NCBI RefSeq assembly: GCF_018609725.1
Contig: NZ_JAHENT010000161.1
Location: 18,860 to 82,859 of the forward strand
DNA length: 64,000 bases
Source: Methanohalobium sp.
Lineage (GTDB): Archaea > Halobacteriota > Methanosarcinia > Methanosarcinales > Methanosarcinaceae
Direction: 5' to 3'
Part shown: positions 49,376-57,990 of the stretch, in pieces
How positions within the stretch are numbered: the first letter of the stretch is position 1
How the letters are laid out: the number at the start of each line of letters is the position of its first letter
Position numbers and translations under genes: made by a program
The notes under the pieces: model-generated
Told to the model about the DNA's origin: nothing
Databases searched by the model: none
The model's input: the letters and a program-made list of their open reading frames with translations, nothing else

Positions 49376-50029
49376 TTATTTCAACACTTCACCTGTTTGT
49401 GTATACCAAAGATAAAGGTCAAGTTCTGCGGGTGTTAAATCCGCCTCTTCTGCAATTGAATTAAACACCTGTTCAATGTTGTAATACTTTTTCCTTGTAA
49501 GCGTTTTTGGAACTTCTATCAGACCACTATTGCTCAAAATACGCAGTATATGCTTATCAAGAATAGCCAGATGTTTGTAACCAACATTTCTAAGAAAGTG
49601 GCTGGATTCCTTGTATCCGATTCCCTTGATATTTTTGACAATCCATTCACGTGCAGTAAATTCATTTTCCATAGAAGTGATTCTATCCCTGATATCTGCT
49701 GCATTATTTCTGGCAAGTATTATGAATTCAGCTCTTTTTTCATAAAAACGGTGACCCATTTGCTTCAATACTGTGGATAGTTCTTTTTGATCATAAGTCA
49801 GGAAACCATCATTTTTTTTCATATAATTCTGGATATCAATTCCCAGCCTTGCACTTGAATTGGCTGTTAGAAGACAGAAACAGAGTTCATTGAACCACTC
49901 TTTATTGCCTTTTTTATAAAGGGATTCAAATTCAAGGATTCGTTTGTCCACTGTTTCTGATATATCGTCTGCTTTCAAATCTTCAACAATTCTTATTAGG
50001 TCTTTTCTGGATTCAATATTCAATTTCAA
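49376..50029 (-). CDS. ogg: 8-oxoguanine DNA glycosylase/AP lyase
   Basis: ELCFCLLTAN, KGIGYKESSHFLRNVG, ILDKHI, LDLYLWY. Confidence 0.92.
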   Translation of the reverse strand: MKLNIESRKDLIRIVEDLKADDISETVDKRILEFESLYKKGNKEWFNELCFCLLTANSSARLGIDIQNYMKKNDGFLTYDQKELSTVLKQMGHRFYEKRAEFIILARNNAADIRDRITSMENEFTAREWIVKNIKGIGYKESSHFLRNVGYKHLAILDKHILRILSNSGLIEVPKTLTRKKYYNIEQVFNSIAEEADLTPAELDLYLWYTQTGEVLK

Positions 50030-50050: not shown

Positions 50051-50872
50051 TTAACTCAAAAGATTGCTTATTTTTCCTTTCACAAGAGAATATGCAAAAT
50101 AAAACACGGACATAACCAGAATAATGGTCGCACCGGATGGTATATCATATAAATAAGATATTCCAAGTCCTCCTGTACTAAATATAGCTCCAAATAATAC
50201 TGACAAAATCATCATCCTCTTAAAATCGGAAGTCATCTGACGGCTCAATGCTGCAGGTATTGTTAAAAGTGCTATTATAAGAATGATACCCACAACTCTT
50301 ACCAGAACCATCACTGTAAGTGCTATCATACACAAAAGCAGATAATAAAGCTTCTCTGCCGGGACTCCCATCACAGTTGTCATTTCCTCATCAAAACTAA
50401 TTGCCAGGAACTCCTTATAGAATATATAGACAACTGAAACAATGACCACATCCAGTATCAACATCAATATTACATCAAAAACAGGTACTGTAAGTATGTT
50501 ACCAAAAAGATAGGTCATGAGGTTGGGCGCATAACCGGGTGTCAGATTCAAAAAAACAATACCTATTGCCATCCCACTTGCCCAGAGTATGCCGATTGCT
50601 GAATCCTCTGGCAAACTGGAACGTTTTGTAATCCATCCTATACCAAGTGCAGATGCAATTCCAAAAGGTAAAATTCCAAGAACAGGATTAAATCCGAGAT
50701 AATATCCCATACCTATACCCCCAAAAGATGCATGAGCTATCCCTCCCCCTATAAACACTATACGTTTTACAACAACATAAGCTCCGATGATTCCACAGGC
50801 TATACTGGCAAGTATTGCCGCAAACAGAGCATTTCTCATGAATTCATACTGGAGGAGTATATCTACCACCAT
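50051..50872 (-). CDS. Zn/Mn ABC transporter permease (ZnuB-like)
   Basis: HASFGG, YLFGNIL, SFDEE, VGIILI.ALL.IP. Confidence 0.92.
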   Translation of the reverse strand: MVVDILLQYEFMRNALFAAILASIACGIIGAYVVVKRIVFIGGGIAHASFGGIGMGYYLGFNPVLGILPFGIASALGIGWITKRSSLPEDSAIGILWASGMAIGIVFLNLTPGYAPNLMTYLFGNILTVPVFDVILMLILDVVIVSVVYIFYKEFLAISFDEEMTTVMGVPAEKLYYLLLCMIALTVMVLVRVVGIILIIALLTIPAALSRQMTSDFKRMMILSVLFGAIFSTGGLGISYLYDIPSGATIILVMSVFYFAYSLVKGKISNLLS

Positions 50873-50884
50873 TTTAAATCTCCA

Positions 50885-51646
50885 TCAATGATCTTTGAGC
50901 ACCCTGTGTGGAACACCGTGAGCTATCATTTCTACTGGACAGTGATAGGCAGCTTCCAGGTCTTCATGGGATATTTCTTTCGAGCCGTGATAGAACAATT
51001 TACGATTAAGACATGCTACCTTATCTACATGTAATGATACAGCAGTTAAATCGTGGGTCACCATGATTATTGCCATATCTTTTTTCAGTTTTGATAATAA
51101 TTCATATAACTCACTCTGCATATGTGTATCAAGACCTGCACTTGGTTCATCAAGCAGCAATACTTCTGGTTCCGCTCCCAGTGCCCTTGCTATAAACACC
51201 CGCTGTCTCTGTCCACCTGATAGTTTACCTATCTGATGGTTGGCATAATCTTCCATATTTACTGTTTTCAATGCTTTATTAGCCTTGAACTTGTCTTCAC
51301 TGCTATAACGTTTCAAAATACCTGCATGTCCCATGCGACCCATGAGAACAACATCCCATACACTTATAGGGAAATCATAATCAAAAGAACTATGTTGCGG
51401 AACATAACCCACATATTTACGATTTTTTGCAGGACTTTCACCAAACAGTTTCACCTTTCCATTACTCGGTTTTATTAACCCAAGTATTACTTTTAATAAA
51501 GTAGTCTTACCTCCTCCGTTTGGTCCAATTATAGCCAGTAGGTCTCTGGGTTGTTCTACTGTCAGGTTAATATCTTCAAGCACAGGTATATTACCATAGT
51601 GCACCCAGACATTGCTGAGTTCAACTGCATTATCATATGTTACCAT
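50885..51646 (-). CDS. Zn/Mn ABC transporter ATPase (ZnuC-like)
   Basis: GPNGGGKTT, LSGGQRQR, LLDEP, VTHDL. Confidence 0.93.
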   Translation of the reverse strand: MVTYDNAVELSNVWVHYGNIPVLEDINLTVEQPRDLLAIIGPNGGGKTTLLKVILGLIKPSNGKVKLFGESPAKNRKYVGYVPQHSSFDYDFPISVWDVVLMGRMGHAGILKRYSSEDKFKANKALKTVNMEDYANHQIGKLSGGQRQRVFIARALGAEPEVLLLDEPSAGLDTHMQSELYELLSKLKKDMAIIMVTHDLTAVSLHVDKVACLNRKLFYHGSKEISHEDLEAAYHCPVEMIAHGVPHRVLKDH

Positions 51647-51663
51647 TTAATCCCTCTTCATGG

Positions 51664-52521
51664 TTACTGATTAAAATTTTCTGCAAGCACTTCAGAAACA
51701 TTTCTAAGATTGGATACATAATCCTTTGAAAGCGGGTCTAACGTTACAACTTTTCCGTTGACTTCATTTGCAATTGATTCAGCACTGGATGTACTAAACT
51801 GCTCCTGTACATATATTACAGAAATGTTTTTCTCCTTTGCTATATCTATAAATTGCTGTAATTCCTTTGCACTTGGTTCCTTGCCTTCTGATTCAACAGG
51901 TATCATATCTAAACCATATTCTTGTGCAAAATAACCCCATGTAGGATGATAAACAATAAAACTTTGATTTTCGTATTCTGATAATGTATTATTTATGTAG
52001 GAATCCAGTTCATCCAGTTCCTGCATGTATCTATCTTTATTCTGTGAATAATAATCCTTATTTTCAGGGTCGACCTGGATAAGACCTTTATAGATATTCT
52101 CAACCATTATTTTGGCATTTTCAGGAGATGTCCAAACATGGGGGTCATTGTTTCTAATAGTTATACCATTTGATGAATTTACAATCAACATTTCATCATT
52201 AACTGACCTGATTTTATCCATCCAGGAATTTTCAAATGGTAGTCCTGAACCCAGTTTTGCATACATCAAAGCGTTACTTAAATCTCTTAGTTGTCCCGAA
52301 GTTGGTTCATGTGTTGCCGGATTTGCTCCAGGAGGTATCATTACTATTGTATTAACTTTCTCTCCACCTATCTGCTCCACAAATTCAGCCTGTGGAAGTA
52401 TGCTGACTGCAACCGTTATATTTCCATCATCTTTTTGTGTTTGAGCCTGTTCTGAACAGCCAGTTACAAGCAATACAGCGATTACCAATAAAACAGACAG
52501 CAGTTTATAATAGTGATTCAT
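51664..52521 (-). CDS. Zn/Mn ABC transporter binding lipoprotein (ZnuA/TroA-like)
   Basis: Lipobox VTGC, NPATHEP, DPHVW, YHPTW.YF. Confidence 0.92.
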   Translation of the reverse strand: MNHYYKLLSVLLVIAVLLVTGCSEQAQTQKDDGNITVAVSILPQAEFVEQIGGEKVNTIVMIPPGANPATHEPTSGQLRDLSNALMYAKLGSGLPFENSWMDKIRSVNDEMLIVNSSNGITIRNNDPHVWTSPENAKIMVENIYKGLIQVDPENKDYYSQNKDRYMQELDELDSYINNTLSEYENQSFIVYHPTWGYFAQEYGLDMIPVESEGKEPSAKELQQFIDIAKEKNISVIYVQEQFSTSSAESIANEVNGKVVTLDPLSKDYVSNLRNVSEVLAENFNQ

Positions 52522-52588: not shown

Positions 52589-53023
52589 TTAATCAACGAG
52601 TTCACAGCTGTCATGTTTAATCTCCCCGCAGTTGCTTAATTGAGGATGACCCATTGACTTACAAATTCTATCTACTGCATATTTTGAAACATATCCTTCA
52701 AATCGTGATACTTCCCCACATGCATCATTTGTGGACAAACCGTAATGGCTGAGTAAAAGACTAAGGATTCTGTGTCTCCTCAACAGGAATTCTGCATATT
52801 CTCGACCGTATTCAGTAAGACAAACCCCCCTATAAGGTATATGATTTACGTAACCACTTTTTGTAAGTTCATTGATTACTTTGGTGGTTGTAGATGGGTC
52901 CACGCTTAATTGTGAAGATATATCTGTTGTTCTTACTGTTTCATTCTTTTCAAGCAAAAATTTAAGATACTGTATTTTCCGAGGTGTTAGCTCAAGCCCT
53001 GTGAATTCTCCCATAATTAACAA
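52589..53023 (-). CDS. DtxR/MntR/TroR family metal-dependent regulator
   Basis: QYLKFL, VRTTDIS..LSV.PST, HIPYRGV.LT..G, RRHR.L. Confidence 0.88.
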   Translation of the reverse strand: MLIMGEFTGLELTPRKIQYLKFLLEKNETVRTTDISSQLSVDPSTTTKVINELTKSGYVNHIPYRGVCLTEYGREYAEFLLRRHRILSLLLSHYGLSTNDACGEVSRFEGYVSKYAVDRICKSMGHPQLSNCGEIKHDSCELVD

Positions 53024-53074
53024 ATGATCAAATAAAGCATTTATATTTTGTGTATAAGAACAAAAATAATCACT

Positions 53075-53097
53075 ATTTTTGGTGTTACTCCAAAAAT
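53075..53097. promoter_or_regulatory. Palindromic putative operator in the divergent promoter
   Basis: ATTTTTGGTGT-T-ACTCCAAAAAT, one mismatch in 11-bp arms. Confidence 0.5.
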
Positions 53098-53181
53098 TAT
53101 GGTAATTATTAATGATTTTTTATAATAAATACCAAAAGCAATAAATAACTAAATTGACTACTTAACGTTTAGGGGAATTAT

Positions 53182-53475
53182 ATGGTTACAACACAAATTC
53201 CCTGGACATTTGCGTGTGCAGATGAAAAGGGAGAGAATTTAAACGTTGAAATCGACTTGCCTGGCATAAAGAAGGAAAATATTGAATTTAAGATGCATGA
53301 TAACAGTTATACTGTAAGAGCTGTAAATGACGATATTAAATATGCAGGAACCTTTCCCACTTGCTGCCCGGTAACACCGGAAAAAGCAGTCGCCAAATAC
53401 ACAAACGAGAAACTTATTATTACTGTCCCATTCCAGGAACCTCATATGAAATCAATAGATTTAGAGATAGAGTAA
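53182..53475 (+). CDS. Minimal Hsp20/alpha-crystallin-domain protein with CCPV motif (1 of 4)
   Basis: EIDLPGIKKENI, TCCPV.PEKA.AKY, L.ITVP. Confidence 0.85.
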   Translation: MVTTQIPWTFACADEKGENLNVEIDLPGIKKENIEFKMHDNSYTVRAVNDDIKYAGTFPTCCPVTPEKAVAKYTNEKLIITVPFQEPHMKSIDLEIE

Positions 53476-53539
53476 TAAGGATTACTAAGCCACTTAAGTA
53501 GATAAACCAGATTATTGTCAAAAGGGGGAGTATAAAATA

Positions 53540-53842
53540 ATGGCTGAAGCCCAATTAATACAGACACCATGCGTGTTTGCATGTCCTGATGAGTCAGGTG
53601 AATATTTGAACATCGAAATCGACCTTCCGGGTGTGAAAAAGGAAAATTTAGACTTTAAAATGAGTGAAAGTACTTTTTCCATCAAAGCTACAAATGATGA
53701 TGTGAAGTATTCAGGTACATTTTCAACATGCTGTCCAGTGGCTCCGGATAAAGCTAATGCCAAATTCACCAAAGAAATGCTTGTTGTTACGGTACCATTT
53801 CAGAAACCCCATAGTAGAGCAGTTGATGTCAACATAGAATAA
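53540..53842 (+). CDS. Minimal Hsp20-domain protein with CCPV motif (2 of 4)
   Basis: TPCVFAC, EIDLPGVKK, TCCPV. Confidence 0.85.
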   Translation: MAEAQLIQTPCVFACPDESGEYLNIEIDLPGVKKENLDFKMSESTFSIKATNDDVKYSGTFSTCCPVAPDKANAKFTKEMLVVTVPFQKPHSRAVDVNIE

Positions 53843-53859
53843 TTTCTGACGGAGATAAA

Positions 53860-54156
53860 ATGGCAGGTACGATACAAACGCCATGTATGTATGAACGTAT
53901 AGACATCAGCGGCAAAGAGTTAATAATTGAAGTAAATTTGCTGGGTGTAAAAGCAGAAAATATTGATTTTAAACTTGCTGAGGATTCATTCGCTGTAAGA
54001 GCCACCAATGAGAACATAAAGTATTCGGGCAGTTCGTTTACATGTTGCCCAGTTATACCTGATAAAGCAGAAGCCAAATATCTCAATGGCACACTTACTG
54101 TAAGAGTTCCACTTCAAAAACCATTCCCAAAACCAGTGAATATAAAAATTGATTGA
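53860..54156 (+). CDS. Minimal Hsp20-domain protein with CCPV motif (3 of 4)
   Basis: TPCMY, EVNLLGVK, TCCPV. Confidence 0.85.
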   Translation: MAGTIQTPCMYERIDISGKELIIEVNLLGVKAENIDFKLAEDSFAVRATNENIKYSGSSFTCCPVIPDKAEAKYLNGTLTVRVPLQKPFPKPVNIKID

Positions 54157-54171
54157 TGGAGGTAATAAAAT

Positions 54172-54471
54172 ATGGCAGAAACTAATATACAAACACCATG
54201 TGTTTATGCATGTGCAGATGAAACAGGAGAAAACCTAAACATTGAAATCGACCTTCCGGGTGTGAAAAAAGATAATATTGAATTCAAGATAACAGAAGAT
54301 AGTTTTGCCGTCAGAGCAAACAACACCGAAATTAAATATGTCGGCAGTTTTGCTGTATGCTGTCCGGTTATGCCGGATAAAGCTGTTGCAAAATATTCCA
54401 ATGATAAACTCATTGTCACAGTACCGTTTAAAGAAGTACATGAAACTCCTGTAGAAGTTAAAGTACAGTAA
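54172..54471 (+). CDS. Minimal Hsp20-domain protein with CCPV motif (4 of 4)
   Basis: TPCVYAC, EIDLPGVKK, VCCPV. Confidence 0.85.
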   Translation: MAETNIQTPCVYACADETGENLNIEIDLPGVKKDNIEFKITEDSFAVRANNTEIKYVGSFAVCCPVMPDKAVAKYSNDKLIVTVPFKEVHETPVEVKVQ

Positions 54472-54495
54472 TAAATCAAATAAAGAGGGAGAAAA

Positions 54496-54699
54496 ATGTA
54501 TCCAGTAATAGATTACAGTGTATGTGAAGGGGACCTTGCTTGTTATGAAGTATGTCCTGTAGACCTGTTTGACGTTGGCAACAACGAAGAAAAAGAAATG
54601 GAGGTTGCTGTTGTTGCACGACCCGAAGATTGTATTGAATGTGAACAATGTGTAGAAGTATGCCCGGTGGATGCTGTAAGACTGGTTGAAGATGAATGA
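54496..54699 (+). CDS. Dicluster ferredoxin (CxxDxxCxxxCP + CxxCxxCxxxCP)
   Basis: CEGDLACYEVCP and CIECEQCVEVCP. Confidence 0.92.
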   Translation: MYPVIDYSVCEGDLACYEVCPVDLFDVGNNEEKEMEVAVVARPEDCIECEQCVEVCPVDAVRLVEDE

Positions 54700-54741: not shown

Positions 54742-56429
54742 CAGACTGTCCGACAATTCTGGACTACTGTCAATCTATTTTTATCTATAAGGCAAATAAA
54801 TATAAATGATAGATTAATTAATTTATTAACATGGCTTTCATCCAATCATCTAAAGACCAGACATGGCTGCTGCCACCTGATATAAGAGACATGATAAGTT
54901 CAGACCATATCTGTTACCTAGTAGATTCCTTCGTAGAAGAACTCGACTTCAGCGAGTTTGAAGATAGATATGCAGGTGCAGGACACCCTGCATATCATCC
55001 AAGGATACTCTGCAAAGTGCTGATACAGGCAATGATCGATGGTATCAGATCATCACGTACCATCGCAAGATGTGTACGTGAGAATGTAGTATACATGTAC
55101 CTCGCTGAGAAACTGACTCCGGATTTCAGAACTATAAGTGATTTCAGGAAGGATAATGGTGATTTGATCAGAGAAATCTTCAAAAACACCGTTAATGCTG
55201 CCAGGGAAGTCGGGTCTGTGGGGATGGAACAGATGAGTATCGATGGGTCTGTAGTTAAAGCGTCTGCATCCAATAACAGTACTGTTACAAGAAATGAACT
55301 GGATGTTATAGAGGATTACATCGACAAGATGCTGAAAGAAAGCATTGTAACTGATGAACTCGAAGATGAACAATTACAAGACTGCAGGGGCTACGATCAG
55401 CTTGATGAAAACGGCAAAAACCGAGTTAAGTCTGTCTGTAAGAAGTATGCTGATAAGCTTAATAATACAAATCAGGATAAAAACTCGAGATATCTAAACA
55501 ATGTAAAGGTGGCTAAACAAGAATCCGATAAGGATACCACCAAAGGATTTAGTTTAACTGATCCTGAATCAAGGTTTATCAAGAACAAGAAGGGTAGAAT
55601 CGAACTGGGATACAACACTCAAATCACTGTTGACCATAAGGAAGGAATCATAATCGCAAACGATGTTTGTCAGGATAGAAACGATGCTCATCAGCTTAAA
55701 CCACAACTTGAACTTGTTGAAAAGTACTGTGGGAGATTAGGTAAAAATACGAAAATATGTGCTGACAGTGGTTACATTCATGAAAAGAATATACAATTCT
55801 TGAAACAGAAAGAACTGGATCCCTATATACCGGAACAAATCGATAATAGTTATAAGAAAAATCCTAAACCTGAAAATAATGCTGAACATCCTTACCATGT
55901 TTCAAGATTTATTTATGATGAACAAAGGGATGTGTATATTTGCCCTGAAAACGGGATTTTGACATTTTCATATGAATCATATGATGGAGACAGACCAGAA
56001 AAACGTCGAGTTTACAGAGGTATACATTGCAGAGATTGTAAATCCAAATATCAATGTACCAACAGAAAGGATGGGATACGTCAGTTAAAAATCACTTATG
56101 TATCAGAAGATAGGAAACATCTGAGAGATAAGATGAAAACTGAACAAGCAAAGAGAATATTTGAACAAAGGAAACATACTGTTGAACCTGCTATCGGAAA
56201 TTACAAGCAGAATTTGAGATTCACAGAATTTATTACAAGAGGGTTAAATTCTGTAAAAACTGAATTTAATCTGGTTTGTGCTGCTGTTAATCTAAAGAAA
56301 ATATGGATGAATTCTGGATAATACAAATAATTGATTGAAAATCAATTATTTGTATTGTAGAATAACAAAAAATTCTGCAAAATAATATGGTACGTATTAT
56401 TGTTTAACTAATTATTGTCAGACAGCCTG
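54742..56429 (+). mobile_element. IS1182-family insertion sequence
   Basis: 16-bp IRs CAGACTGTCCGACAAT / CAGGCTGTCTGACAAT; 4-bp TGAA direct repeats at 54738-54741 and 56430-56433. Confidence 0.92.
54831..56321 (+). CDS. IS1182-family DDE transposase
   Basis: LLP....I..DH, G.PAYHP..L.K, PDFRTI.DFR, IDGS...A.A, GYN.Q, ADSGY, R...VEP..G..K. Confidence 0.92.
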   Translation: MAFIQSSKDQTWLLPPDIRDMISSDHICYLVDSFVEELDFSEFEDRYAGAGHPAYHPRILCKVLIQAMIDGIRSSRTIARCVRENVVYMYLAEKLTPDFRTISDFRKDNGDLIREIFKNTVNAAREVGSVGMEQMSIDGSVVKASASNNSTVTRNELDVIEDYIDKMLKESIVTDELEDEQLQDCRGYDQLDENGKNRVKSVCKKYADKLNNTNQDKNSRYLNNVKVAKQESDKDTTKGFSLTDPESRFIKNKKGRIELGYNTQITVDHKEGIIIANDVCQDRNDAHQLKPQLELVEKYCGRLGKNTKICADSGYIHEKNIQFLKQKELDPYIPEQIDNSYKKNPKPENNAEHPYHVSRFIYDEQRDVYICPENGILTFSYESYDGDRPEKRRVYRGIHCRDCKSKYQCTNRKDGIRQLKITYVSEDRKHLRDKMKTEQAKRIFEQRKHTVEPAIGNYKQNLRFTEFITRGLNSVKTEFNLVCAAVNLKKIWMNSG

Positions 56430-56463: not shown

Positions 56464-56826
56464 TCAACCTTTAACGAGGTTGAGCATTTGCTGATTCATG
56501 GACGGTACTTGAGAGCTGGTTCTATGACCAGTCGTAGAGGTCCCCTCTCCACAGCCGTTGATTCCCGCGAGCCCCCCAGTATGCTTTTTTGAGTTATAAT
56601 ATGATGATTTTTTCAATATGTTTATCGCAGCATTAAGATCTCTGCCAATTCCTAATCCATAATTACTGCAGTAGAATGTTCTCTCTTCCAATTTCAGTTT
56701 TTCTTCTCTATTAGTTCTACAACGAGAACAGATTTGAGAGGTGTTGTTGGGATTGACTTTGTCTACGATTTTACCTCTCTTGGCTGCTTTATAGGTCACA
56801 TGCTGAACCAGTTTATTCCAGCCCAC
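56464..56826 (-). pseudogene. tnpB: tnpB C-terminal fragment
   Basis: W..L.....YKA..GK, TSQICSRC, RTFYC, RDLNAAINI. Confidence 0.85.
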
Positions 56827-57016: not shown

Positions 57017-57673
57017 TCAAATATGAATGCTAACTCCTGACCCAATTTCCATAAATGAGTCTGGATACAACTTTGCTATTTTATTTTTATTAGATGTACA
57101 GTGACCTGCAGCAATTAATTTTAAATTTTTGAGTAAATTATATTCCTCGCTTCCGTGAAGCCCACCTATAATTCCTGCTATATCACCATAAACAGATGCA
57201 TTTTCTATTATATTTGTTAATCCGGGATGTGCACAACCTGTTATCACATACACTCCAGCGCTTGTTTCCAATAAAAGGGATTGTTCCTTGATTTTTTTAC
57301 CGAGTTTACCGGTCGTATATATAGATGGATGTATCTCGGTGGGCTGTGATATTTCTATTAATTTGGCTCGCGAAGATATTTCGTCTTTAAGATATTTGGA
57401 AAATGATGCAGGAACATAGACCTCAAGGTCTGTATTGGCATTAAGGATGGATGTAAGCCCACCCATATGATCCCAGTGGTGATGAGACAGCACAACTTTT
57501 CCAATTTCTAATGGTGATACACCCAACATCTTTAAATTGTGGAGGAGCACGTAGCCATCCCAACCCGTATCAAATAGAATTTTGGATTGACCTGTATCTA
57601 TCAGGCAGGAAAAACCCCACCCACTAAGGAATCCATTAATTGCATTATTATCATATACTACTGTTAATTTCAT
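57017..57673 (-). CDS. MBL-fold metallo-hydrolase
   Basis: LFDTG, LSHHHWDHMGG, ITGCAHPG, GGLH, GHCT; real start likely MKLTVVYDN at 57673. Confidence 0.88.
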   Translation of the reverse strand: MKLTVVYDNNAINGFLSGWGFSCLIDTGQSKILFDTGWDGYVLLHNLKMLGVSPLEIGKVVLSHHHWDHMGGLTSILNANTDLEVYVPASFSKYLKDEISSRAKLIEISQPTEIHPSIYTTGKLGKKIKEQSLLLETSAGVYVITGCAHPGLTNIIENASVYGDIAGIIGGLHGSEEYNLLKNLKLIAAGHCTSNKNKIAKLYPDSFMEIGSGVSIHI

Positions 57674-57680
57674 CCAATTG

Positions 57681-57722
57681 GTCGCAGGAGACTCCCTGCG
57701 TAAGCTGGGAGTCTCCTGCGAC
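57681..57722. repeat. Perfect 16-bp inverted repeat, 3' end hairpin of an older iscB element
   Basis: GTCGCAGGAGACTCCC-N10-GGGAGTCTCCTGCGAC; same GTCGCA..TGCGAC boundaries as the hairpin at 57998-58041. Confidence 0.8.
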
Positions 57723-57729
57723 CTATCTT

Positions 57730-57990
57730 TTAAATCTGTACCATCTGAGTTAGAGTTGTGCATCTTGCTGATATCCTCCTGCAGTTTTTCTTAACGTTAG
57801 GGTTTTTCTTGAATGTATTTCCGAATATATCCATGATGCTGAAATTTCCTGATGTTCTCTTACCTTTAACGAAACCTGAGCTGACTGGTGTTTTGATGAA
57901 ATCGAATTTTCTCAATCCGTGGAGTTTTCCTGTTGGTATATTCTTCTCGGATCTTACACCTTTAGTTTGTTAATAATCTCCACTGCTCAC
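57730..57990 (-). pseudogene. iscB: C-terminal remnant of an older iscB of a different subfamily
   Basis: VSSGDY*QTKGVRSEKNIPTGKLHGLRKFDFIKTPVSSGFVKGKRTSGNF..NVKKNCRRISARCTTL; premature TAA; frame continues at 59597-59635 as LSDVVYYKKH. Confidence 0.7.

Follow-up and report, generated by a model that had tools for sequence, protein, structure and literature searches.

A distinct minimal small heat-shock protein variant with a conserved ferredoxin partner in Methanosarcinaceae

What could four alpha-crystallin proteins of about 98 amino acids (aa) do in a methanogen when their genes stand in a row directly before that of a ferredoxin? We addressed this question for the plus-strand locus at 53182-54699 in a 64,000-nucleotide stretch of a Methanohalobium genome (contig NZ_JAHENT010000161.1), the whole of which is called the window below. 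The four proteins, termed mini-sHSPs here, represent a distinct, uncharacterised variant within the family of small heat-shock proteins (sHSPs), with a conserved ferredoxin partner, and the oxygen-defence genes that adjoin their relatives point to an unstudied redox-stress role. The row comprises the following genes:

53182 to 53475, plus strand: mini-sHSP copy 1, 97 aa; Cys at 12, 61 and 62 (PWTFAC...TCCPV); PF00011, E = 4e-5
53540 to 53842, plus strand: mini-sHSP copy 2, 100 aa; Cys at 11, 15, 64 and 65
53860 to 54156, plus strand: mini-sHSP copy 3, 98 aa; Cys at 9, 62 and 63; open reading frame (ORF) intact, CCPV present
54172 to 54471, plus strand: mini-sHSP copy 4, 99 aa; Cys at 10, 14, 63 and 64; CS domain PF04969, E = 5e-5; PF00011, E = 9e-5
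54496 to 54699, plus strand: seven-Cys dicluster-type ferredoxin, 67 aa; Pfam Fer4, E = 8e-13

The four same-strand ORFs (53182-54471) are paralogous far beyond chance, with copies 2, 3 and 4 showing 59, 45 and 59% identity to copy 1 and with 30 alignment columns, C-C-P-V included, invariant among them. Their N-terminal motifs read PWTFAC, PCVFAC, PCMYER and PCVYAC (copies 1 to 4), giving totals of 3, 4, 3 and 4 Cys, and copy 3 has lost the second N-terminal Cys and carries LLG in place of LPG. Each of the five genes starts with ATG behind a purine-rich stretch (GGGG, GGAG or GGAGG) that resembles a ribosome-binding site (RBS), and the gaps along the row measure 64, 17, 15 and 24 bp, the last of them between copy 4 and the ferredoxin; judging from this layout, the five genes probably form one transcription unit. 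An initial annotation, made from the letters of the window, had described four paralogues of about 98 aa, each with its own RBS, an invariant CCPV, a partly degenerate third copy and a ferredoxin 24 bp further on, and all of these features were borne out, the CCPV being retained at only 45-59% identity.

We then examined the family to which these proteins belong. All four copies score just above the gathering threshold of Pfam HSP20 (21.3-24.1 versus 20.8), and copy 4 also passes that of the CS domain (24.6 versus 21.3), under which copies 1 and 2 remain (16.0 and 18.7) and to which copy 3 gives no match. Scores against the NCBIfam model of archaeal Hsp20 (NF041800) are 39.6-50.6 bits, under its cut-off of 140, and the alignment spans only model positions ~73-162 of 162, that is, the domain and the tail. 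An AlphaFold2 model of copy 4 (predicted local distance difference test score 92.9, from a 45-sequence alignment) is a sandwich built from seven main strands and one short strand at the N-terminus, with a tight hairpin where most sHSPs carry the beta6 loop. Its best Foldseek match is the alpha-crystallin domain (ACD) of Sulfolobus solfataricus Hsp20.1 (4RZK; template-modelling score 0.86-0.88 by target, root-mean-square deviation 1.3-1.6 A), followed by other sHSPs and CS/p23 domains, and a profile search of PDB sequences again placed 4RZK at the top (E = 7.6e-9). On the strength of the Pfam, NCBIfam, structural and PDB profile results, we assign the proteins to the sHSP family, with the N-terminal arm and the beta6 loop lost.

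No more than 9-12 residues lie ahead of the invariant Pro at which strand beta2 begins, whereas the variable N-terminal region of sHSPs typically has 30-90 aa and is used in substrate binding and in the formation of higher oligomers; this genome also encodes two canonical sHSPs, which have 137 and 184 aa and no CC. The C-termini (IDLEIE, VDVNIE, VNIKID and VEVKVQ) follow a family consensus of V-x-V-K-I-E at the extreme end, and the V/I-x-V/I tail is regarded as homologous to that of other sHSPs because hidden Markov model (HMM) alignments to chloroplast Hsp21/25.3 run through it to the last residue. The window proteins are sHSP family members reduced to the ACD and a C-terminal anchor. The missing N-terminal region had been recognised in the initial annotation; its placing of CCPV where Hsp20s have the xLP motif was approximately right, since in the profile alignment with 4RZK the CC comes immediately behind the Leu of its D-L-P-A-E-V motif. 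It is plausible that such proteins are not generic holdases, the substrate-binding arm being absent.

The ferredoxin contains seven Cys (C-x2-D-x2-C-x3-CP and C-x2-C-x2-C-x3-CP), one fewer than a dicluster set of eight. The second Cys of the first motif is missing from all sHSP-linked orthologues, which have Ala, Ser or Val instead, and the motif suggests a ferredoxin of the 7-Cys [3Fe-4S]+[4Fe-4S] pattern. The gene pair gave our strongest result. Of 101 sampled Methanosarcinaceae genomes, 21, from four genus-level groups, encode a close orthologue of the ferredoxin (54-100% identity, E <= 1e-19). Relatives of the mini-sHSPs (HMM of the four copies, E <= 1e-10) occurred in 26 of the 101 genomes and in 6 of 16 genera, often as 2-5 copies per genome, and all 21 genomes with the ferredoxin fell among these 26. 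An sHSP lies directly upstream of the ferredoxin on the same strand in 19 of the 21 loci, as an ORF in 18 (one cut by a contig end, two shortened with an in-frame stop) and as a pseudogene with three stops in one. In the remaining two loci, the sHSP is absent between the flanking genes (L144) or the locus has just 373 bp of sequence before the ferredoxin. Behind the sHSP stand between one and three copies of the ferredoxin, and more distant 7-Cys ferredoxins, all of them in genus-level groups that lack the pair, have no sHSP neighbour.

The flanks of the pair differ. A family-4 uracil-DNA glycosylase stands upstream and an ATP-grasp protein downstream in Methanosarcina and in a further genus-level group (g2), while in Methanohalobium an MntR/ZnuABC operon takes the place of the glycosylase. 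The conserved unit is the sHSP-ferredoxin pair, not the wider neighbourhood, and this pair, sHSP then ferredoxin, is an old two-gene module of the Methanosarcinaceae. Of the ferredoxin and metal context proposed in the initial annotation, the ferredoxin part was confirmed across four groups, and the metal part did not extend beyond the two Methanohalobium genomes with a readable upstream region.

More widely, a profile search of 1.84 billion representatives returned 272 clusters (50% identity) at E <= 1e-10; a further tail down to E <= 1e-3, which brings the total to 5,533 proteins, presumably consists of canonical Hsp20s. These were also caught by a phylum-wide profile search at E 1e-8 (273 of 401 genomes), from which only strong matches were used. 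For taxonomy and gene context, we relied on a related-locus search seeded with CCPVxP[DE]KA, and the conservation of the CC itself was measured from the HMM-based searches. The seeded search found members in Methanosarcina, Methanosalsum, Methanohalobium, several Asgard lineages and Thermodesulfobacteriota/Syntrophobacterales, with further members in Spirochaetota, Anaerolineales and a few other metagenome-assembled genomes (MAGs). Database names are limited to 'Hsp20/alpha crystallin family protein' or 'HSP20 family molecular chaperone IbpA', and full-text literature searches found no paper on the subfamily, in agreement with the earlier remark that no description of such a system was known.

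Genes for defence against reactive oxygen species (ROS) recur beside these relatives. A rubrerythrin gene adjoins a paralogous mini-sHSP in 11 Methanosarcina loci, with an HMA-domain P-type ATPase nearby, and Methanosalsum carries two EncFtn-like genes beside its family member. Superoxide reductase (SOR) is the neighbour in two Asgard MAGs and a rubrerythrin-like gene in one Thermodesulfobacteriota MAG. In a MAG labelled Gemmatimonadota (CP070758.1), catalase, ferritin, SOR, a CC-type mini-sHSP and a ZIP transporter are arranged in a compact same-strand row, the clearest oxidative-stress operon with a family member. DUF255 thioredoxin-like proteins stand beside family members in three lineages, and the gamma and delta subunits of pyruvate:ferredoxin oxidoreductase do so in one genus. 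The recurrence of ROS-defence neighbours in unrelated phyla is hard to put down to chance synteny.

Methanosarcina also has a second, conserved type of locus (L103-L105, L108, L110, L111, L114, L115), made up, in this order, of a CC mini-sHSP, a Cys-less 'DG' paralogue, a DUF1059 gene and a convergent gene for a TspO/MBR membrane protein. The 'DG' paralogue, which lacks the CC, carries a C-terminal Cys (..CARxIPIE), the DUF1059 protein ends in CGCGAL, and the CC copy is a pseudogene or truncated in several genomes. Another Methanosarcina member (G097:C107:7443-7736) is open apart from two in-frame TAG codons; it may be either a pseudogene or, in this pyrrolysine-decoding genus, a candidate for read-through.

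How far the Cys are conserved depends on the residue. Among 120 clusters of the Methanosarcina clade, the second Cys of CC is present in 120/120, the first in 95/120 (79%) and the N-terminal Cys in 76/120 (63%), with Ser in 39; the expectation that the Cys residues would be conserved thus held within this clade for the second Cys of CC and failed for the other two. The N-terminal Cys sits on strand beta2 at positions 11 and 15 in the window, at 15 in the ferredoxin-linked Methanosarcina clade and at 13 in most other clades, which are alternate positions of the strand. Of 126 unbiased full-length representatives, 50 have Cys at the second CC position, 25 have His and 19 have Trp, and a complete CC is found in 34. 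There are entire clades in which the site is occupied by His, Trp, Gly or Tyr. The 'CCPV plus N-terminal Cys' signature is partly lineage-specific. The Trp (GW) clade is nested inside the bacterial CC clade in the maximum-likelihood (ML) tree, so its Cys was lost secondarily. The P-V that follows is invariant everywhere and is regarded as structural because it persists even in Cys-free clades (GW-PV, DG-PV); for the same reason, we rejected a 'CP' heme-regulatory motif as the main reading of C-P-V. In the His clade, two more residues are conserved, namely a Cys located five residues before the key position and a His with which beta2 ends (C60/H65/H16). Members of this clade (..YHD.. on beta2, ..GCWxLAH.. 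at beta7) reach 5-7 copies per ~2 Mb genome in an archaeal family of the same phylum (f8), where the copies are dispersed or loosely clustered and their neighbours mostly uninformative.

What the mini-sHSPs do can be read in several ways. We favour a ferredoxin-coupled redox-stress variant of the sHSPs with the invariant Cys as an oxidation-sensitive switch, to which we give a probability of roughly 40%, because the gene pair is conserved, ROS-defence genes recur in the neighbourhood of relatives, and an sHSP from Methanolobus provides a precedent for protection against oxidants. The mini-sHSP would then act without ATP as a dedicated guardian or assembly partner of the linked ferredoxin, and in other lineages would serve iron-based O2-detoxifying enzymes instead. 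Like other sHSPs, it would assemble through its C-terminal tail, and the four copies may enter hetero-oligomers. The invariant Cys at the end of beta7, the second of CCPV, would be a thiol or thiol-metal switch assisted by the adjacent Cys and the beta2 Cys, and its oxidation would alter the assembly or binding state. Several points weigh against this proposal. sHSPs normally need the N-terminal arm, absent here, for substrate binding and large oligomers; many relatives do without the first or the N-terminal Cys, and Cys-free paralogues exist, one of them in the window genome. With its extra Cys/His, the His clade resembles a metal site more closely than a thiol switch. Hydrophobic periodicity suggests that the invariant Cys may face the core, at or beside the position of the LP-motif Leu, so that it may be largely structural. 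Moreover, the neighbours of many family members are uninformative, and co-transcription of the row is deduced solely from gaps of 15-64 bp.

Some of these points favour a metal or Fe-S site on the alpha-crystallin fold, which was the idea of the initial annotation. In our form of it, Zn, Fe or an Fe-S cluster would be held by Cys/His residues on beta2 and where beta7 ends, possibly across subunits, and the protein would serve as a metallochaperone, carry clusters or exchange electrons with the 7-Cys ferredoxin and with SOR/rubrerythrin. The exchange of Cys for His at the key position (~50 and ~25 of the 126 representatives) is typical of metal ligands, not of disulfides, and the co-conserved C60/H65/H16, the up to four Cys in the window copies, the neighbouring iron and Fe-S proteins, DUF1059, ZIP transporter and, in Methanohalobium, MntR/ZnuABC, and a linked ferredoxin short of one cluster ligand are all consistent with it. 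However, conservation does not extend to any set of three or four ligands, given a first Cys at 79% and an N-terminal Cys at 63% that occupies three positions. Adjacent Cys in a strand normally face opposite sides, the GW clade shows that the site can be lost, and domain and family scans of the copies gave no match to any metal-binding family; we regard a metal site as less likely than the redox-stress reading, but as a serious rival to it. A wider form of the idea seems unlikely: that strict anaerobes recruited the alpha-crystallin fold not as a holdase but as a redox or metal protein whose Cys/His site where beta7 ends, perhaps shared between subunits, binds iron or Fe-S, with the four paralogues in mixed assemblies and acting with the 7-Cys ferredoxin in repairing, loading or feeding electrons to iron-dependent oxygen-defence enzymes, among them SOR, rubrerythrin and ferritin-like proteins. 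It is also rather unlikely, in our estimate, that the copies are ordinary sHSP paralogues, either short general holdases or subunits for co-assembly, with structural or incidental Cys and a ferredoxin next door through inherited synteny without functional coupling. Such proteins would explain the Pfam HSP20 scores and the Hsp20 annotation, the canonical ACD fold and tail, an invariant Cys in or adjoining the core Leu place and the Cys-free relatives, and tandem sHSP arrays are common. They would not account for a reciprocal ferredoxin pairing that persists across four genus-level groups though the flanks differ, nor for the adjacency of ROS-defence genes in unrelated phyla; the substrate-capture arm is absent, and the genome already has two canonical sHSPs.

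The survival of transient oxygen by strict anaerobes such as methanogens, and the guarding of their very large Fe-S proteome, are poorly understood. A small family of ~270 clusters that is easily expressed, is genetically locked to one ferredoxin in Methanosarcinaceae and adjoins SOR, rubrerythrin and catalase in Asgard and sulfate-reducer relatives offers a specific candidate, open to testing, for a protective or assembly factor that is still missing. If the redox-stress reading is true, the known roles of the alpha-crystallin domain would widen. Should the proteins be ordinary holdases, they would still provide a clean natural ACD-plus-tail minimal sHSP for studies of sHSP assembly.

We further considered the region upstream of the row, where the initial annotation had correctly reported a divergent metal regulator and ABC importer:

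49376 to 50029, minus strand: 8-oxoguanine DNA glycosylase (PF22175, E = 4e-68), 21 bp after the permease gene
50051 to 50872, minus strand: ABC-3 permease, last gene of the ZnuA/ATPase/permease row (50051-52521)
50885 to 51646, minus strand: ABC ATPase, between the ZnuA and permease genes
51664 to 52521, minus strand: ZnuA-type binding protein, downstream of the regulator
52589 to 53023, minus strand: DtxR/MntR-family metal-dependent regulator, divergent from the sHSP genes
53024 to 53181: AT-rich intergenic region between the MntR-like gene and copy 1, putative promoter region

The regulator belongs to the DtxR/MntR family (PF01325, E = 2.3e-11; PF02742, E = 4e-15) and scores under the cut-offs of the MntR equivalogs. 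The intergenic region contains TATA-like runs, TTTATATT near 53040 and TTTTTTATAATAAATA near 53116, and an RBS-like GGGG precedes copy 1. The shared region allows a further reading, in which the operon would belong to a metal-starvation regulon and be induced when Mn, Zn or Fe is limiting, for instance to spare or buffer metal. The divergent arrangement of regulator and ZnuA-type importer is kept in the sister genome, which fits; it is missing, however, in Methanosarcina/g2, where the family-4 glycosylase stands upstream, and in Methanosalsum, so that this reading would hold for Methanohalobium at most. No convincing operator palindrome was found in 53024-53181, the inverted repeats there being AT-rich noise, and with 95% identity to the sister genome, the sole comparable one, the region is too similar for informative footprinting; overall, we consider such a regulon very unlikely. 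The 8-oxoguanine DNA glycosylase gene may share a transcript with the MntR-ZnuABC operon across its 21-bp gap, and a base-excision glycosylase is found near the module in two lineages, the 8-oxoguanine enzyme in the window and the family-4 uracil-DNA enzyme in Methanosarcina/g2.

We also compared the mini-sHSPs with known systems. They share with Sulfolobus-type Hsp20.1 (NF041800; 4RZK) the beta-sandwich, a short beta5-beta7 hairpin without a beta6 loop and a hydrophobic C-terminal tail, and differ in lacking its ~75-residue N-terminal region, in having CC instead of P-A after the Leu and in the ferredoxin pairing. The Hsp12 family of Caenorhabditis elegans is similarly very short, with little beyond the alpha-crystallin domain, and weak or absent holdase activity and small oligomers are reported for it; in contrast to the mini-sHSPs, it is eukaryotic, unrelated by descent within the family and is not known to have a conserved Cys motif or a ferredoxin or ROS-defence context. 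CS/p23 domains have the same HSP20-like beta-sandwich, and as protein-protein adaptors they illustrate a possible mode of contact with the ferredoxin; unlike them, the mini-sHSPs carry an sHSP-type C-terminal tail, and three of the four copies stay below the CS cut-off that copy 4 passes. To our knowledge, an Hsp90 partner is not expected in archaea.

Redox behaviour has precedents in other chaperones. Hsp33 is an ATP-independent Zn-Cys holdase that is activated by oxidation of its metal-holding Cys. The likeness to it is one of function only, as an oxidative-stress holdase, because the fold is unrelated and the copies gave no match to the Hsp33 family; their Cys pattern is P-C-x3-C...CC and not a CxCx(27-32)CxxC zinc centre. 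Human HSPB1 has a redox-sensitive Cys137 in beta7 at the dimer interface. Yeast Hsp42 is described as having a redox-sensitive Cys and disulfide-driven assembly (PMC13405057). The logic proposed here for the mini-sHSPs is the same, in that oxidation of a Cys located in beta7 or close to it would change how the chaperone assembles and behaves; HSPB1 and Hsp42, however, are full-length proteins with N-terminal arms, and no vicinal Cys pair or redox-gene coupling is reported for them. Within the Methanosarcinaceae, the Methanolobus psychrophilus sHSP Hsp17.6 protects proteins and Escherichia coli from H2O2 and HClO (PMC7961418). Hsp17.6 is a canonical protein of 17.6 kDa with a proposed Asp/Met 'oxidant sink' in place of Cys, and the three sHSPs of that study have 17.6-20.2 kDa, none being of ~11 kDa (PMC7961418). 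In Methanosarcina acetivorans, an 'hsp20' (MA4574) that is not assignable to the mini-sHSP subfamily co-purified with HdrD1 (PMC4169405).

In the sister genome (G005), the locus is present with its ferredoxin and divergent regulator, but it holds only two sHSP copies. In the ML tree, copies 1 and 4 of the window are orthologous to its first and second copies (94% and 93% identity), and copies 2 and 3 have no orthologue there, copy 2 being an extra copy and copy 3 the most diverged (branch 0.70). In the window genome, the sHSP part has expanded from two to four copies. A fifth relative is encoded elsewhere in this genome (C102:14890-15144); it has 87 aa and no Cys, SYLI standing where the copies have CCPV and Tyr replacing the N-terminal Cys, and its C-terminal V-x-I tail is gone. 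It is a natural 'no-Cys, no-tail' control, and it has orthologues in sister genomes and in Methanosalsum.

Downstream of the ferredoxin, the window contains the following features:

54776 to 54786, plus strand: T-run (ctatttttatc), putative archaeal oligo-T terminator
54831 to 56321, plus strand: DDE transposase of an insertion sequence (IS) element (PF13751/PF01609/DUF772), just 3' of the ferredoxin
56464 to 56826, minus strand: 120-aa ORF, between the transposase and MBL-fold genes
57017 to 57763: MBL-fold gene

The T-run is likely the 3' end of the five-gene unit; a scan of the region for sigma-70 promoters and bacterial-type terminators remained at the level of shuffled sequence, these models being bacterial and the host archaeal. 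The MBL-fold gene of the window is split from the ferredoxin by the IS transposase, and in the third Methanohalobium genome (L009), the ferredoxin has an MBL-fold gene and a DUF1847 gene as its immediate downstream neighbours.

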